Virus record (IMG/VR): IMGVR_UViG_3300042319_000316
Span: 1-25,758 of that record
Reading direction: 5' to 3' (one strand)
Source of the DNA: a virus
Taxonomy: Duplodnaviria; Caudoviricetes
DNA length: 25,758 nt
The translations under genes were made by a program, and so were the position numbers. The notes below the pieces were generated by a model, which saw nothing but the letters and a program-made list of their open reading frames with translations, did no database searches and had not been told where the DNA came from. The first letter of the stretch is position 1, and each line of letters starts with the position of its first letter. This document shows, in pieces, positions 2,156 through 20,790 of this stretch.

Positions 2156-5100
2156 ACAGCCTAACAGAATTAAATGGATATGCATCAGCACTCAGTTTTG
2201 AATTTACAGATAACAGAATTCCTAATGTAACTTTTACAACACCTACTGCTGTTAATCAAAGCCAAATTGTTGATGAGGGATTTAGTTTTAGTTCCGCAGT
2301 TGGAATTGAAATACTTGAAATACTAAACGCAGGTCAAAGTCAACCAACATACACTATCAATGTTTCCAATTTAAATGGAGCAACAGTTTCCTGGGCAAGT
2401 TTACCAACTGGTGTCACTGCGACAACTGTATCAACTGGCGTTTACAGACTTAGCGGTATTACTAGTAAAGCTCAATGGGATGCTGTAAAATATGCAAGTA
2501 TTTCAATGCCTGCTAATTATAACGGTATTTGGAACTATACCAGTACTATTGCATATTACAGTCAAGTCAGTGGTAATCAAAGCAAGTCTTGGGTTACATC
2601 AGTAACAGTAAATGATGTTGTATTTTTAACAACACCACTAGAATTTACCTATACTGCCAGTAATACTGCTTTAGTCACTAATGGAACACAACTGGTAAAC
2701 TTAGATGCAAGTTATCCAGGTGTGACCTGGACAGTGGTTGGCACACCTAATGATAAAGCTTCAATTAATAATTGGACAACCACAGGCACAGGCGGCACAT
2801 TCTCAGTTAATGCAACAACAAAAGTGTTTACTATAGTTGGGACAAGAACTCAAGTAAACAGTCGTCTAGCAGGGCTTACTTTAACAACCAATGCTCAAGA
2901 TACAGATTTTTCTATAAATTATGCAGTATCAAATAGTTTAAATTCAACAACAGACAATACAATTCAAACTTTTAAAAGTTATAATTTAACAAAATTAACT
3001 AACACAAGTCCAAGTTATTTTATTGAAGATGCTTCTTTTAATAATGTCACTGGATTTCCTATTATTACAGACACGCCTTATGATGGAACAGGAACTTATA
3101 ATTTAAGAATAACTCCATCAACAACTACAGGAGTATCAACTATTAGCTCACAGCCCAGGGCAAAGACAATGTCTAATGCAGGGGCTGCAACAACTTCAAC
3201 AGCACAAATTAAATTTGGAGCTGCATCAATGAGTTCTAATGGTACTACAACTTCTTATATTAGTACAAATGTTAATTTAAATGATTTTAACTTTGGTGCA
3301 AATGATTTTACTGTAGATTTTTGGATAAGAGTACCTGCACAGACCAGCTCAGGTGGCATTATGAATAAAATTAGTTCTAGTGCATCTGGAGCTCACTTAG
3401 GATGGAGTATTGCATTACAAAATGGTTATGTAGAATTCTTAGGCGGATACAACCCACCAACATCAGTTTCTCCATTAGTTGGAGTAGCTAGGTTAGGAAT
3501 TACATCTAGACTTACAGCAGATACTTGGACTCATATTGCGTTTTCTTGCAAAGATGGGGTGTTATCAACTTATAAAAACGGAACACGCGAACAACAAACT
3601 GCTGTAACCACAATAGCAGATAGCACAGGTAATTTGCAAATTGGCAAAGGTTATTATTTTAATGACGGCCTTGGTAACAATAACGGGGCTTGGAGAGAAA
3701 CTTGGACCGCTGTTGTTACTACTGCGGCCTTAACTCCTGTAGTTAATGCAAGTACCGCAATTGAATCAATTACTATTACTAATGGAGGAAGTGGATATGC
3801 TACTCCACCAACTATTTCAATTAGTGCTCCAGCAGGAGGTTCAAATGCAGTATTAACTGCGGTTCGTAACGCAACAACAAATGTAATTACTTCTGTAACA
3901 GTGACCAGCGGTGGTAATGGATACACTACGGCTCCTGTACTTACTTTTTCAGGCGGGGGTGGCAGCGGAGCAACGGCCACTGCCACCATTTCAAATGGTG
4001 TTGTTACTAGTGTTACTGTTAATAATCAAGGAACAAATTATACTTCTGTTCCTTCAATAGCAGTTTCAGCTACAAATAGAGTTCAAGCAACTGCCACGGC
4101 AGTAATTACAAACGGTGTTATTACTGCCGTTACCGTTAATAATGCAGGTTCAGGGTATACCAGTAATCCAACAATAACATTATCAGGCGGAACTACTGTA
4201 AACGGTACTTTAAATGGTTACCTAGATGAAGTTAGAATTAGCAATATTGCAAGATATGTTGATTCAACTTTTGTTCCTAATGCAGTAGCCTATACTTGGA
4301 ATCCAAACACTAAACTTTTATTACATTTTAATGGTAATTTTATAGACGATGTTGAAACACAAGGACAACTTGGATCGCAATCTTTTAATAGTTCCACAAA
4401 AGCATTAACACTTACTGGAACTAGAGCAGAAATTAACGATACGCTAAACTATCTAACAGTGACTACTTCAGTTGACTGGGCAAGCGATTTTGCATTAAGT
4501 TATTTGTTAACAACACCTAGAGATGAAACAGCCACTAAAACGCAGGCAATATTATGCGGAAGCAATGACATTGAAATAACAAATATGAACGAAACAAGAT
4601 CTTATATTGCTAATCGTGGTAATGAGATTTTTGCAACAACAACTCCTGTTATTAGCGACTTTGATTCTGCTGAAGGAAATACCTACACCATTGGATTTAC
4701 TAGTTCATTAGGCCAATTTGCTTTTGGTAGTAGTGATACTCCTGTAAACAGTTTAACATTTGCTGGTACTAAGGCACAATGCAATGCTAAATTTAGTAGT
4801 GTTAGATTTTATCCAACAGCAGGGGTTTCTAGCAACGGAACGCTTACCTACACGCAGATTAAAAACGCAGTTACACAGATATCACAAACTGTTGCACTAA
4901 CTGGTACCTATGCTACCTATGCTAATGCAAGAAGTTTTATATTCACTTCTAGTCAGACTTATACTCCAACTTTTGAAGATATTAGATATGGCAATTTTGA
5001 AATTGCCCTGGTTGGTGGTGGTGGAACAAGAGGTGCTCCGTTTCCTCCAAATGGCTCAGGATTTGATGAAATTAGATGTCGCGGAGGTGGCGGTGGCGGT

Positions 5101-6054: not shown

Positions 6055-7920
6055 ATGTCATCATTATATCAACCATTAAACATAAACGGTGTTGTTTCAA
6101 CAGACAAAACAGCACTACAAAATCTAAACGATCTTTGCACAGCCGCTGGTGCATTCCTTACTTTTGATATTAGCCAAGGCAAGTGGGCTGTAATTATAAA
6201 CACTACAGGTTCTAGCATCAAGAGTTTTAACAACTCAAATATCATTGGTAGTATTAATGTTAGTGAAACAGGAGTTAGTGAACTTTACAATAGTTGCAGT
6301 CTAGAGTTTCCGCATAGAGAACTTCGTGATCAAACAGACTTTGTTGAAGTCGCAATTCCTAGCGAAAATAGATATCTTAACGAAGTTGATAATACTCTCA
6401 ACATTCAAAGCAATCTTATTAATGATCCTGTACAGGCACAATATATTGCCAGCGTTGAACTAAAACAAAGTAGACTAAACAAGATCATAACTTTTACCAC
6501 TGACTACACAGCACTAGGTCTTAAAGCAGGTGATCTTATTGATGTTACTAGCACAATGTATGGATATACCAGCAAGGTATTTCGTGTTACACGACTTGAA
6601 GAAGTAGATGAAGAAGGCATCACAATTAACATTACTGCTCTAGAATATTCCGCAGATGTTTACTCAACCGCTGGTCTAATTGCTGTTGAAAAGACCAAGA
6701 AGACAGGTATTAAACTTAAAGAAAATAATGAAACTTTAAAAGATCTAGATGATGCCAAGGTTGCTCTTAGCATTGGTCGTATGCTTGCCGCCAATGTGGG
6801 TCTGGGTGTTGTTAACAGTTTGTTAAACAAGTTGTTTGGAAGAACACAGGCCAAAGATGCCAATGGCAATCCAATAGTTGATGCCAATGGCAATCCAGTT
6901 TATACCAAACAAACAAAACCAACTGATACTGCGGCTGCAGAACTTGACAAAGTGCTAGGTGGTGCTAAAAAGCCAGCATTAGCCACTATTTCCGCAGGCG
7001 GCACAATGTGTGAAGGCGGCACAAAAACAATTACTGTTGGCCATACTTGTTCAGTCTGTTTATTTGATATTCCTCCATTAGATTACGATTACACTATTAC
7101 TGGCATCTCAGCAGGAGATATATCAATTCCTTTAACAGGTGTTGTTACAGTAACTAATGGTACAGGTACACTAACATTTACTGCTATTGCAGATGCTACT
7201 ACTGAAGGCAACGAAACAGCCACAATTACTATTGGTGGTCTTGTTACCACTGTTAACATTTATGATACCTCTGCTGATTACACTTATAGTGTAGCTAAAT
7301 CTGCAGCCAGTATAACAGAAGGTGCCAGTGTCACCGTTACCGTAACAGCTACAGGATCAAAAGCCAATGTCACTGTACCTTACGCTATTACAGGTGCTGG
7401 CACAGGTAGAGTAAGCACACCACTTACTGGCAATATAACAATTAGCGGTGGAACTGGAACATTAGTAATTGCCACAACTGATGACAACACATTTACTGGC
7501 ACACAAGGCATTACATTTACCATTGAACCCTTATTAAATAATCCTTGTGCTGAAGTTGGAACAAATTCAACCAGCATTTCAATATTAGATAATGATACTG
7601 CTACAACTACCTGTTCATATGTTTCAGTTCCTGTAGTTTGGTGTGGAATATTTAATGGTACTACAGGAGCATTGGTTGGTATAAGTTCAAGACAAAGTGC
7701 TTATTTTCCTGTACCACAAGCAGGAGAAGCCACAATATTGATACCATATGTTTGCACAGTGTCAAACGGTTCTATTGTTATTAGTGAGCAAATTCAAGTA
7801 GCCGCTGCCAGTGTTAATGCAGGCGGGTTCCCAGTTAGAGTTATTACTACTTTTAATACAATACCAGCAAGAGGAATTATTACAGGCAGTACAACCACAC
7901 TCTATGGCTACAATGCCTAA
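6055..7920 (+). CDS. Tail-tip hub protein, C-terminal half, with Calx-beta/Ig-like extension, 621 aa
   Basis: Starts INGVVSTDKTALQNLNDL..AAGAFLTFDISQGKWAV and contains LKAGDLIDVT...KVFRV...ITALEY, both phage tail-hub motifs. Calx-beta-like segments DATTEGNETATITI and SISILDND follow. Confidence 0.7.
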   Translation: MSSLYQPLNINGVVSTDKTALQNLNDLCTAAGAFLTFDISQGKWAVIINTTGSSIKSFNNSNIIGSINVSETGVSELYNSCSLEFPHRELRDQTDFVEVAIPSENRYLNEVDNTLNIQSNLINDPVQAQYIASVELKQSRLNKIITFTTDYTALGLKAGDLIDVTSTMYGYTSKVFRVTRLEEVDEEGITINITALEYSADVYSTAGLIAVEKTKKTGIKLKENNETLKDLDDAKVALSIGRMLAANVGLGVVNSLLNKLFGRTQAKDANGNPIVDANGNPVYTKQTKPTDTAAAELDKVLGGAKKPALATISAGGTMCEGGTKTITVGHTCSVCLFDIPPLDYDYTITGISAGDISIPLTGVVTVTNGTGTLTFTAIADATTEGNETATITIGGLVTTVNIYDTSADYTYSVAKSAASITEGASVTVTVTATGSKANVTVPYAITGAGTGRVSTPLTGNITISGGTGTLVIATTDDNTFTGTQGITFTIEPLLNNPCAEVGTNSTSISILDNDTATTTCSYVSVPVVWCGIFNGTTGALVGISSRQSAYFPVPQAGEATILIPYVCTVSNGSIVISEQIQVAAASVNAGGFPVRVITTFNTIPARGIITGSTTTLYGYNA

Positions 7921-16903: not shown

Positions 16904-17380
16904 ATGGACGACAAAGAATTTAAAAAAATCCTCAGTGAAGTGGCAGAATGGCGATTTGAAAAGGTCAGCGACACTCAAATTAAACAAAGCCGTAAAATGG
17001 CCAAGGGTAAATTCAAACCCATTGTGGAAGGTGAAGAGCCAGAAATGGCAGTGCAGCTTGTTGATGGTGTCAATCCCACAGTGGTACCCATATTGGTCAA
17101 ACTTAAACCCTGTGCCACTAACTGCGAAGACTGCGGTAAACACTGCCCCAATGGCAGACAAGTCACTGCCAAAATATATCCATCAAGAGCACTAGGCCTG
17201 CATTGGCGTAAACGATGTGTGACCTGTCAACGATATCTTAACAAAGACACTGGCAAATATACCGTACCAGACAACAATGCTTCAAATCATTACAGCACAC
17301 TTAAGACTGGACATCAAGTGTCATTTGAAAGTGATAAAGAAATAATCACAATTCATTGTGAAAACACACAGGCGGAATAA
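16904..17380 (+). CDS. Hypothetical Cys-rich (putative Zn-binding) protein, 158 aa
   Basis: CxxxCEDCGKHC and RCVTC motifs; basic N-terminus. Confidence 0.65.
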   Translation: MDDKEFKKILSEVAEWRFEKVSDTQIKQSRKMAKGKFKPIVEGEEPEMAVQLVDGVNPTVVPILVKLKPCATNCEDCGKHCPNGRQVTAKIYPSRALGLHWRKRCVTCQRYLNKDTGKYTVPDNNASNHYSTLKTGHQVSFESDKEIITIHCENTQAE

Positions 17381-17383
17381 ATA
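17376..17383 (+). promoter_or_regulatory. T4-late-like promoter (AATAAATA) for the small RNA
   Basis: Applying the 5-nt spacer seen at the leaderless genes puts +1 at A17389, the start of the sRNA closing stem. Confidence 0.5.
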
Positions 17384-17387
17384 TTAT

Positions 17388-17482
17388 TAGCAGGGACAAA
17401 TATCCGTTAATCCTAAGGGATGGTTTGGCTGTCACTAAATCAAAAAGTAGTTTCTTATTGCCATTAGAAACGAGCCCTGTTA
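17388..17482 (+). ncRNA. Cloverleaf small RNA (~95 nt), candidate C4/CI-like trans-acting antisense RNA
   Basis: Closing stem TAGCAGGG/CCCTGTTA. Arms: TATCC..GGATG; GGTTTGG-ctgtca-CTAAATC; GTTTCT-tattgccatt-AGAAAC. Several G-U pairs; flanked by a promoter-like box and a terminator. Confidence 0.65.
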
Positions 17483-17516
17483 GAAACCCAGTCGCAATGA
17501 TTGGGTTTCGTCTTTT
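17483..17516 (+). terminator. Rho-independent terminator
   Basis: 12-bp stem GAAACCCAGTCG-caa-TGATTGGGTTTC followed by GTCTTTT. Confidence 0.8.
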
Positions 17517-17547: not shown

Positions 17548-17555
17548 TATAAATA
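17548..17555 (+). promoter_or_regulatory. Perfect T4 late promoter consensus TATAAATA
   Basis: Exact TATAAATA just after the terminator, with GATATTTT upstream; predicted +1 near G17561. Confidence 0.6.
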
Positions 17556-17560
17556 CTTGT

Positions 17561-18005
17561 GACAGGCAAAACACTTAGGCATCATTGGCAATCCAAATCA
17601 TTTTAGGCACTATCATCTAACACACAAGGTTGGCCCGCCAGATTGTAATAGGGCTGTGGAAAAACCAGGGAATAACTGGGCACGAGACATATTGAGGCAC
17701 CCCCGTTGCTACGGCAACTATCCTGAAAAATTGGAAGTGGGTTTGAGGTTGAAAGCAAAGATAACCAACGCATTGATATAGTATGAATGTTAGCATACGA
17801 ACACACTGGCTATAAACATCTAGACACTAGGAACGAGGTCTAGAGTGCGGTAACGCATATCGTGGCAGGTAAGGAAAAGCACAGAGTCCTTTAGCATACA
17901 GTGATGAAAACACCTGCTTCCATAAGTCTTGGCTGGGGCAACTCACATAAAGATAGACGGTGCCGCTGAAAACGGTTCCGTCTGACTGAAACAATCTACA
18001 TAAAG
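17561..18005 (+). ncRNA. Large (~440 nt) structured, pseudoknotted ncRNA candidate, family not recognised
   Basis: No + strand ORF. Tetraloop hairpins: cUACGg (17705-17718) and GUAA (17846-17857). Helices: TCTAGAC/GTCTAGA, GCAGGT/ACCTGC, AAGGA/TCCTT, TGGAAG/CTTCCA, CACTG/CAGTG, AGACGG/CCGTCT, and long-range AGATTGT(17640)/ACAATCT(17991). Confidence 0.65.
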
Positions 18006-18032
18006 TATCTCAATAGATCATTATGTGTTTCT

Positions 18033-18094
18033 GAACGAAGCGAAGCGACATACGAGTGAGCGGAAGCGAAATGAGTTGATGTCTGTAAGACATC
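18033..18094 (+). other. Primosome-assembly-site-like / ssDNA-origin-like element
   Basis: GAACGAAGCGAAGCGA..GAGTGAGCGGAAGCGAA resembles the ColE1/pBR322 n'-pas region as I recall it. Contains the GCGAAGC mini-hairpin and a GATGTCT-GTA-AGACATC hairpin. Confidence 0.4.
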
Positions 18095-18117
18095 TTTAAT
18101 AGTAAGGAATAAGTGAT

Positions 18118-18543
18118 ATGTGGATTTACAATAATAAAGAGATTACTGAACTTCCTGATGATGTAGTTGGCTTTGTGTATCTGATTACGAACTTGATAAA
18201 TGACAAAAAGTATATTGGTAAGAAGTTAGCCAAGTTTGCCAAAACACGATATAAGATGCACACACAGAAAAATGGTAAACGAGTAAAGAAAAAGATTCGT
18301 TCATATGTGGATAGTGATTGGTTGACATATTACGGATCAAGTGATGCTCTTGCCAAAGACATTGAGCTACAGGGCAAAGATCAGTTCTCACGAGAGATCA
18401 TTCGCTTGTGTTACTCCAAAGCAGAGTGTTCATATTGGGAAGCCAAAGAGCAGTTCTACAATGGCGTTTTGGAATCTGCAGATTGGTATAATGCCCAAAT
18501 ATCAGTGCGCTGTCACAAGAACAACATATTGGGCAAACGCTAA
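18118..18543 (+). CDS. Stand-alone GIY-YIG nuclease (Seg-like), 141 aa
   Basis: GFVYLITN..NDKKYIGKK (GIY-YIG signature), YYGSS, FSREI, a conserved Glu (SYWEAKEQF) and WYN. AAGGA RBS. Confidence 0.85.
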   Translation: MWIYNNKEITELPDDVVGFVYLITNLINDKKYIGKKLAKFAKTRYKMHTQKNGKRVKKKIRSYVDSDWLTYYGSSDALAKDIELQGKDQFSREIIRLCYSKAECSYWEAKEQFYNGVLESADWYNAQISVRCHKNNILGKR

Positions 18544-18560: not shown

Positions 18561-18589
18561 TTGACAATAAATACAGCATACGCTATAAT
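18561..18589 (+). promoter_or_regulatory. Consensus sigma70 promoter (early promoter)
   Basis: TTGACA (18561-66), 17-bp spacer, TATAAT (18584-89). An AATAAATA box is nested at 18566-73. Confidence 0.9.
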
Positions 18590-18594
18590 AATAC

Positions 18595-18622
18595 ATAGAC
18601 AGCGCAATAGTGTGCTGTCTAT
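18595..18622 (+). promoter_or_regulatory. 5'-terminal leader hairpin of the early transcript
   Basis: ATAGACAGCGCA-atag-TGTGCTGTCTAT, a 12-bp stem starting at about the predicted +1. Confidence 0.6.
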
Positions 18623-18645
18623 AACACATACAGAAAGACAGCAAA

Positions 18646-19433: not shown

Positions 19434-19440
19434 CATCAAC

Positions 19441-19526
19441 TGAGTGACTCCAGTTGTGACAGCGGACTGGGGGTCTCACCCTTGTTCTACCACTTCCCCC
19501 CGTAGTGGTCCGCGAAACGGGGGACC
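19441..19526 (+). promoter_or_regulatory. GC-rich structured leader: hairpin plus H-type pseudoknot
   Basis: Hairpin GACTCCAGTT-gtgacagcg-GACTGGGGGTC. Interleaved stems ACCACT/AGTGGT and CCCCCGT/ACGGGGG. Lies directly upstream of the AAGGA RBS. Confidence 0.55.
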
Positions 19527-19536
19527 TTTAAGGATA

Positions 19537-19746
19537 ATGGCAATGCGAATTCTAATACTTTTAGTAGCAGTAGGTCTAAGTGGTTGTGCCACACCCTTTG
19601 AAATGTATGCTCACTATCTAAACACACAGGACCCTTGTCAAAGCCAAAACAATGGCGGCCGCTATCCCAGCTTCTGTGGAGCAGGTGGGAGCAAGACCTA
19701 CATATACAATAATCAAGGTGCACGAGTTGGCTACACAAAGAATTGA
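19537..19746 (+). CDS. Small lipoprotein, 69 aa (possible superinfection-exclusion protein)
   Basis: Start re-called to ATG 19537. Signal peptide MAMRILILLVAVGLSG-C with an LSGC lipobox, plus two further Cys. Confidence 0.75.
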   Translation: MAMRILILLVAVGLSGCATPFEMYAHYLNTQDPCQSQNNGGRYPSFCGAGGSKTYIYNNQGARVGYTKN

Positions 19747-20348: not shown

Positions 20349-20349
20349 A

Positions 20350-20790
20350 ATGGCAAAAAGAACCTATGATCAAAAACTACAGAACATTCTAGATTATGTA
20401 GAGATTACCAACTATCACTGGGATCGCCTCAAAGGTGAGCTACACGATGATGAAGAATTCTGGCAGCACATATTTGGCACAATGACTGATCAAGATTGGT
20501 GGGATTGGGTTGACATCCAACCTGCACTGAAAATACAGTATGAAACTGAATACCGCCGCTGGTATAAACTAGATGAAGGCACCGCAGATATTCACAAGCG
20601 TTTGGCATTTGGCAAGCCCTTGTATAGAAAAGATCAGAAGAATGGCAACAAGGCTGTGTTCCGTGCCTGGATGAATATCAAAGACTTCATCAACGACATC
20701 ACGGGTCAACCTACTACTCAATATACTGCCAAAGACCGTGAGCCTGTGCCAGAACCCACCCCCAAAGAACTACTATTCTCCTTTGAATAA
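20350..20790 (+). CDS. Hypothetical protein, 146 aa
   Basis: GAGGA RBS and tight packing with neighbours; family not recognised. Confidence 0.75.
   Translation: MAKRTYDQKLQNILDYVEITNYHWDRLKGELHDDEEFWQHIFGTMTDQDWWDWVDIQPALKIQYETEYRRWYKLDEGTADIHKRLAFGKPLYRKDQKNGNKAVFRAWMNIKDFINDITGQPTTQYTAKDREPVPEPTPKELLFSFE

Follow-up and report, generated by a model that had tools for sequence, protein, structure and literature searches.

Introduction

The described systems closest to the locus reported here are the antisense RNAs of ColE1 (RNA I/RNA II) and R1 (CopA/tap-repA). PMC12361487 and PMC3167613 present these as multi-stem RNAs of about 100 nt that either block a coupled leader ORF or bind a long structured RNA at its 5′ leader, and that are cis-encoded on the opposite strand, fully complementary, and directed at one target; divergence of their sequences would define incompatibility groups, as it would here. 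The concept of a primosome assembly site is also found in PMC3167613. The CI RNA of the satellite phage P4, according to PMC4825925 and PMC5499578, is cut by RNase P from the transcript that it regulates, where it lies between seqA and seqC, and it pairs with both of these, causes termination and maintains lysogeny. The C4 RNA of P1 and P7 (RF01695) is covered in PMC5499578; it is a cloverleaf whose short exposed loops act on several phage sites. A preprint (bioRxiv 10.1101/2022.04.08.487710) describes SviR of PLE, an integrated island, as a helper-induced, trans-acting satellite sRNA with several targets.

Here we describe a 95-nt RNA (the sRNA) of a small tailed phage represented by a 25.8-kb record that is 89% complete; this whole stretch of DNA is referred to as the window. 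The first-pass annotation had proposed a C4/CI-like multi-loop antisense RNA, a repressor or immunity factor that shuts off early genes and modulates a large RNA nearby. The trans-acting antisense part of that proposal is upheld by covariation at the 5′ end of the large RNA and at a start codon at 20350, whereas early-gene shut-off and immunity do not emerge as the main role.

Like RNA I and CopA, the sRNA is predicted computationally to pair with the 5′ leader of an adjacent long transcript. It differs from them in being encoded on the same strand as that target, 80 nt upstream, with its own terminator and a T4-late-type promoter, in pairing imperfectly in two to three blocks rather than with full complementarity in cis, and in having a second target; its role in replication is one that we infer. 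With P4 CI it shares a probable satellite-phage setting, trans action through short complementary blocks, and a nearby transcript leading, here putatively, into replication genes, but its promoter and terminator are separate, its targets lie only downstream, and both an integrase and a sequence match to CI are absent. A terminator (17483-17516) and a promoter (17548) stand between the sRNA and its target, placing it outside the target transcript. C4 represses an antirepressor operon; no antirepressor target was found here, and none of the 30 window ORFs matched an antirepressor or a repressor in family searches, in keeping with the first-pass remark that no protein repressor is visible in the region. 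The sRNA is not a member of the C4 or CI family: the C4 covariance model (RF01695) does not match the sRNA at E≤10, the sRNA has its own promoter and terminator, and its layout carries no sign of precursor processing. A helper target of the SviR kind is likewise unsupported and, unlike PLE, this phage has genes for a complete head and tail and for a terminase.

Results

A small phage with its own virion genes

Over the 10.5 kb compared, the window is identical to a complete genome of 31,125 bp with terminal repeats (G001). The genes lie on one strand and include those for terminase, portal, tape measure, tail, fibre, a methylase and a SegE-like GIY-YIG protein, with capsid and scaffold genes assigned by layout. 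Neither family searches of the 30 window ORFs nor inspection by eye of the missing 5.4 kb revealed a recognisable polymerase, primase, helicase, integrase or repressor. We note that G001 carries a full virion gene set with no replication, lysis, integration or sigma genes recognised, making it a candidate jumbo-phage parasite. The motif TAAATA, which we take to be the core of the T4 late promoter, is found in the complete phage ahead of the sRNA and the large RNA as well as of several genes.

A conserved cloverleaf RNA

The features of the sRNA are as follows.

17376..17383, + strand: T4-late-type promoter of the sRNA (AATAAATA), recognised by its TAAATA motif across homologues
17388..17482, + strand: cloverleaf sRNA of 95 nt, recognised by fold, stem covariation and its single copy in the window
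17405..17435, + strand: 5′ half of the sRNA with arm 1 (CCUAAG, 17412-17) and loop 2 (CUGUCA, 17429-34), a covarying, colinear, imperfect complement of leader 17559-17590 (predicted duplex of -27.0 kcal/mol)
17456..17465, + strand: loop 3 (UAUUGCCAUU), putative anti-start-codon seed for (A)AUGGCA, from UGCCAU conservation and target covariation
17483..17516, + strand: intrinsic terminator of the sRNA, with compensatory stem changes among relatives

The predicted cloverleaf has a folding energy of -25.2 kcal/mol (z -2.55; 2 of 200 shuffles were equally good) and leaves loops 2 and 3 unpaired. Its closing stem and stem 3 covary, with 97.9% of positions paired and 36 cells in which both sides have changed, a result matched by none of 500 shuffles. 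The sRNA is nearly unchanged among relatives whose upstream protein is 74-93% identical. That protein is encoded by a 158-aa Cys-rich ORF (16904-17380 in the window) of no recognised family, which always stands directly before the sRNA promoter.

Homologues were collected with two patterns. A loop-based search gave 34 loci, from which nine were dropped as chance (terminator and promoter context absent) and seven as duplicates, leaving 18 distinct members, all 18 with TAAATA 3-4 nt before the closing stem. A loop-free pattern, using only the promoter and closing stem, gave 54 loci; it recovered all 18 members and, with 10 of 22 loci dropped as chance, added 11 new ones, 10 of which also score in a search with an sRNA model. 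The resulting 29 distinct homologues all reside in small tailed phages or in short contigs of like layout. Conservation of the loops in homologues, which the first-pass annotation had set as a check, is evident: UGCCAU of loop 3 is kept in 28 of the 29 and CUGUCA of loop 2 in 22, while arm 1 is variable. More distant small phages (L105, L091, L479, L486 and L490) retain segments with CUGUCA and UGCCA within different scaffolds at the sRNA position; neither segment is present there in L495.

Rfam searches at gathering and E-value thresholds gave no credible match in the window and 14 related loci, a tRNA search found none, and a search of three jumbo records, together about 555 kb, gave no homologue (best E 0.088). 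One RNA run (0.05 share) left the sRNA uncovered and contained only short pieces of a relative's large RNA, in contigs lacking end or strand information. We found no description of the sRNA or its phage group in published work, though supplementary phage-RNA catalogues could list it. Judged by sequence comparison, the cloverleaf is a real conserved RNA, uncatalogued in Rfam and the C4 models.

Pairing with the leader of the adjacent transcript

The sRNA is followed closely by a second transcription unit.

17548..17555, + strand: second T4-late-type promoter (TATAAATA), a TAAATA motif
17560..17610, + strand: unstructured leader, the putative primary target, with GACAG (17561-65), CUUAGG (17574-79), UUGGCAAU (17585-92) and four GGCA boxes; fully open in the centroid structure
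17585..17620, + strand: relic UUG-GCA start of an 11-codon frame that ends 8 nt before the anchor of the large RNA, homologous to AUG-GCA ORFs in L276 and L293

A terminator and a second TAAATA lie within about 80 nt of the sRNA in every member with enough contig, L006 having an insertion. The leader is constant only at GACAG, and the two bases before it vary among relatives, a pattern that a transcription start near 17560-61 would produce. In many relatives the leader opens an ORF at AUG-GCA, with the predicted sRNA pairing lying over its ribosome site and start; the window lineage has UUG-GCA at that position, and the UUG-GCA frames range from 2 to 45 codons among relatives (11 in the window), their length not being conserved.

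The complementarities first noted are all present. Loop 2 (GCTGTCAC, 17428-35) matches GTGACAGC at 19456-63 (8 bp), GACAGC at 18637-42 and GTGACAG at 17559-65; loop 3 (ATTGCCATTA, 17457-66) matches TAATGGCAAT at 19535-44 (10 bp), AATGGCAA at 20349-56 and TGGCAAT at 17586-92; and the arm 1 site CTTAGG is found at 17574-79. Arm 1 also matches the ribosome site at 19531, but the match spans only 5 bp and overlaps the loop 3 site at base 19535. Single seeds are nonetheless common and so count for little: the complete 31-kb genome has 21 sites for loop 2 (≥6 bp) and 26 for loop 3 (≥7 bp) on its + strand. It is comparative evidence that must decide. The observation that two loci carry the targets in the same order holds for the pair GTGACAG..TGGCAAT within 100 nt, which occurs twice against 0.225 expected, but this comparison is post hoc (P 0.022; 11 of 6320 ordered pairs of sRNA 7-mers reach two).

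The 5′ half of the sRNA and leader positions 17559-17590 form a predicted colinear duplex of -27 kcal/mol. When each sRNA was compared with its own and other leaders, cognate pairs were favoured by energy, with a residual of -2.98 kcal/mol (17 of 18 negative; 0 of 20000 permutations). Counting Watson-Crick pairs only, cognate blocks average 18.9 nt and non-cognate blocks 15.3 nt (n=28; 0 of 20000 permutations), and the preference persists in 12 cluster representatives (33 of 20000) and in 10 members found by the loop-free pattern (101 of 20000); these permutation P values are too small, since the homologues are related. L330 lies on a contig without the leader and hence is outside this comparison.

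Individual relatives display natural compensatory swaps between sRNA and leader: loop CUGACA with leader UGUCAG in L341; UGCCAUUACCU with AGGUAAUGGCA in L327, an 11-bp match over AUGGCA; UCUUAUUCUCC with GGAGAAUAAGA in L321, where 11 bp cover the ribosome site; UUCUCCAUA with UAUGGAGAA in L299; UCUACCU with AGGUAGA in L288; and CUGCCAUU with AAUGGCAG in L285. L320 has rearranged sRNA arms that are still colinear with its leader. The check for compensatory change thus succeeds at the adjacent leader and at the 20350 slot described below, but not at the early-leader and 19456 sites.

In 15 of 18 loci the sRNA pairs better with its own leader than with other late leaders (six loci had none to compare). 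A plain duplex ranking across whole genomes is strong in two phages, with 8 of 2572 windows as good in the window phage and 0 of 707 in L022, and weak in four (103 of 2387 in L024, 106 of 1266 in L032, 535 of 2593 in L030 and 951 of 1117 in L019). Cofolding of sRNA and leader gains only about 4 kcal/mol over separate folds, and within the 18-member set loop 3 alone has no cognate effect against leaders. From these comparisons the adjacent leader is the best-supported partner of the sRNA, and we think it highly probable that the sRNA is an antisense regulator of the adjacent downstream transcript.

The large RNA and the link to jumbo phages

The leader runs into a large RNA, followed by two further conserved elements.

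17611..18010, + strand: large structured RNA, supported by covariation and common to T4-like jumbo phages, a candidate RNA-primed origin
18030..18100, + strand: conserved GCGAAGCG / GAGCG..AGCGAA tract, with a small hairpin, following the large RNA in both small and jumbo phages
18118..18543, + strand: SegE-like GIY-YIG gene with 59% identity to its jumbo counterpart; in several small-phage loci no copy was found close to the large RNA

In the large RNA, about 400 nt long, 30 of 65 pairs covary. A 14-mer from it occurs in an estimated 1100 viral stretches or so, and 85 of 120 that were fetched are true copies; the 121 14-mer matches fetched from cellular genomes include none (the scan covering 4 of 64 parts), and neither form of the RNA matched in a cultured phage collection. 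Two contigs that carry it behind a GIY-YIG gene (109 and 116 kb, each 31% complete) come from T4-like phages and encode late sigma, gp46/47, portal and capsid proteins, and a 332-kb, 95%-complete jumbo record has one copy at 77% identity together with a family B polymerase. Small-phage and jumbo copies interleave on a tree, forcing at least three label changes, although three of the rows labelled small are so labelled simply as loci without an upstream GIY-YIG match. We also note that the RNA is uncatalogued both in the window and in G011 (309495-309896), with conserved AGGCA boxes upstream.

Several further features tie the two kinds of phage together. The complete small genomes and the jumbo have a GIY-YIG protein and a LamG fibre-like protein in common; a late sigma factor and PolB are absent from three of three complete small genomes and present in the jumbos; and 20 of 42 jumbo TAAATA sites lie just before a start, with 1.0 expected. 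The small phage is likely to parasitise T4-like jumbo phages of about 350 kb. Like a phage satellite it would have missing functions (late sigma, PolB) supplied by a helper, but it does not borrow helper virion parts, as terminase, portal, tape measure and tail genes are all present in its own genome.

What follows the sRNA can be exchanged, the slot being occupied elsewhere by other structured stretches or ORF chains, and some small phages (L495, L527) have the large RNA without the sRNA. We observe at least three other structured-looking non-coding stretches, in place of the large RNA, downstream of the sRNA in L285, L321, L288, L320, L267, L342 and L271, behind an ORF family of 104-142 aa. 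The target ORF families have no identity in Pfam, PHROGs, PDB or Atlas. In L318 the slot (2819-4528, − strand) encodes a 569-aa protein with N-terminal repeats that are in tandem at the DNA level, polymerase-A-like motifs and a polymerase-A/D5-primase lead below the Atlas bar; PDB, Pfam and PHROGs gave no match, and it is possible from its sequence that this is a primase-type initiator. The tract at 18030-18100 is reminiscent of a primosome assembly site, and from this, together with the want of any other replication candidate in the genome, we infer that the downstream slot is a replication module.

The pairing could also be accepted and the large RNA be a scaffold, a regulator or a partner of the GIY-YIG protein instead of an origin, or the pairing could activate or chaperone it. 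The large RNA has no catalogued function; GC skew in the 95%-complete jumbo gives no signal of an origin at its position, which neither supports nor excludes one; and most copies lie behind a GIY-YIG gene, closely so in jumbo loci, although no GIY-YIG match is found near it in L006, L022 or L024. Translation also appears to end at its first helix: an ORF runs up to the RNA in 76 of 80 loci, and 33 stop at one identical base. Activation fits poorly with the many homologues in which the ribosome site and start codon lie within the paired region, a pattern that suggests repression, and with an unstructured leader in which there is nothing to unlock; such an sRNA was moreover not found in the three jumbo records. 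We therefore regard these variants as unlikely, and retain repression of a replication module as the preferred reading.

Other candidate targets

Four further sites in the window match the sRNA.

20349..20356, + strand: AAUGGCAA start of a 146-aa ORF, a second covarying target by start-codon enrichment and matching changes
18561..18642, + strand: perfect sigma-70 promoter followed by an early leader in which GACAGC occurs at 18598 and 18637, a weak candidate target
19436..19530, + strand: third conserved RNA, a doubly pseudoknotted hairpin often followed by U tracts, holding GUGACAGC at 19456-63 (14 cells with both sides changed; 0 of 500 shuffles)
19535..19544, + strand: 10-bp loop 3 match over the lipoprotein start, poorly conserved

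The 20350 slot, the gene after a 98-aa ORF, starts with ATGGCA as called in 11 of 17 loci, against a background of 18 of 171; among the rest, two are called from an upstream ATG (one shown as ATGGCA), one has ATGGCC and three lack it. Its proteins have several different N-termini despite the shared ATGGCA. Matches of 10 bp to the sRNA occur in L293 and L320, and L283 has a GUGCCAU/AUGGCAC swap. Sequence comparison makes this start a probable real target of the sRNA, in a gene with no family identity.

The early-leader, lipoprotein and 19456 matches are weaker than these two. The lipoprotein start, which had been proposed as a target, reads ATGAAA in four of five homologues. The 8-nt site at 19456 had been placed in a hairpin loop; comparison puts GUGACA in a joiner between helices, with the last GC within a pseudoknot helix. 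We note that this third RNA, also uncatalogued, has two covarying pseudoknot helices formed by its hairpin loop and two GUGAC copies. It is possibly an attenuator and an sRNA target; a riboswitch or a ribozyme are also candidates. L283, in which the third RNA was not found, has at about 7030-7100, in sRNA orientation (G004), a second long hairpin RNA, sigma-70-driven, with UUCUCCUGG and UAGCCAUU segments.

These sites bear on the original proposal that the sRNA is a C4/CI-like immunity factor mainly silencing early genes and attenuating at 19436-19530. GACAGC does follow sigma-70 promoters in 5 of 17 loci (0.26 expected; rank 3 of 4096) and is found in 6 of 19 translation starts, and the third RNA keeps GUGACAGC in 11 of 15 copies, where it overlaps the pseudoknot helix before a terminator-like hairpin; a protein repressor was also not found. 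Neither site has compensatory changes, however, and the closest relative, L004, whose sRNA is identical, breaks both, its early leader reading GTCAGC. L320 keeps the third RNA without loop 2. GACAGC is part of a reused AGAAAG-type ribosome-site cassette, the copy at 18598 is self-paired in a 12-bp hairpin with its own GCUGUC, and arm 1 matches the early AGGUAGA ribosome site in only one of five loci with that leader type. No integrase was recognised, and the late-type promoter would make the sRNA only with the helper's late sigma factor, not in a quiescent immune state. Such a role is thus quite improbable.

A SviR-like weapon, in which loop 3 would block AUG-GCA starts of helper late genes, appears still less probable. 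Helper-induced timing is compatible with it, the helper portal and tail-tube genes start with ATGGCA, and loop 3 is near-invariant even where the adjacent start differs (L321 and the window). This invariance is explained by the phage's own 20350 slot, however; ATGGCA starts are not enriched in the jumbo (24 of 348, against 18 of 171 in small phages); and the sRNA pairs better with its own leader than with all 126 jumbo late leaders, none of which pairs as well. A chance origin of the complementarity, or its being an inverted repeat that serves a protein at the DNA level, can be largely dismissed, for although seeds are common and jumbos without the sRNA likewise conserve GGCA boxes upstream of the large RNA (24 per kb versus 1.1), the stem covariation, loop placement, use of G-U pairs, rearranged arms that are still colinear, and matches that track ribosome sites all speak against it.

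Discussion

The account that we favour is that the sRNA represses the adjacent transcript by pairing and so limits replication of a small parasite of jumbo phages; taken as a whole we hold this to be somewhat better founded than not. The late sigma factor of the helper would switch on the sRNA and its target together; loops 2 and 3 would seed contact, and the 5′ half of the sRNA would then zip along the leader. Relatives led by an ORF would have the ribosome site and AUG-GCA covered, blocking a translationally coupled operon, while in the window lineage pairing would cover the relic UUG-GCA leader, such that the large RNA is neither translated into nor folded to its active form. With the downstream slot acting as a replication module, the dose of sRNA would rise with copy number, giving feedback as well as incompatibility between sibling parasites, and loop 3 may also damp the 20350 gene.

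A more ambitious version, which we put forward tentatively and consider rather doubtful as it stands, is that a widespread class of full-virion tailed phages of 29-32 kb runs wholly on the late sigma factor and replisome of jumbo phages, and has repeatedly captured a jumbo origin, namely a primer RNA of about 400 nt that becomes active when a ribosome stops at its first helix. The cloverleaf, as an antisense RNA encoded in tandem and acting in trans, would throttle this origin and also set incompatibility among siblings.

The family offers unusually clear natural compensatory swaps, making the code between loops and targets directly testable with reporters. It represents control of a leader by an antisense RNA whose gene does not overlap its target, and which can follow a swappable downstream module. 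The larger object is a group of phages with full virions and no recognised replication genes, tied to abundant uncultured jumbo phages through a common large RNA. Should this RNA prove to be the jumbo origin, it would provide a first handle on how jumbo phages initiate replication, and these phages would be a new kind of phage-on-phage parasite.
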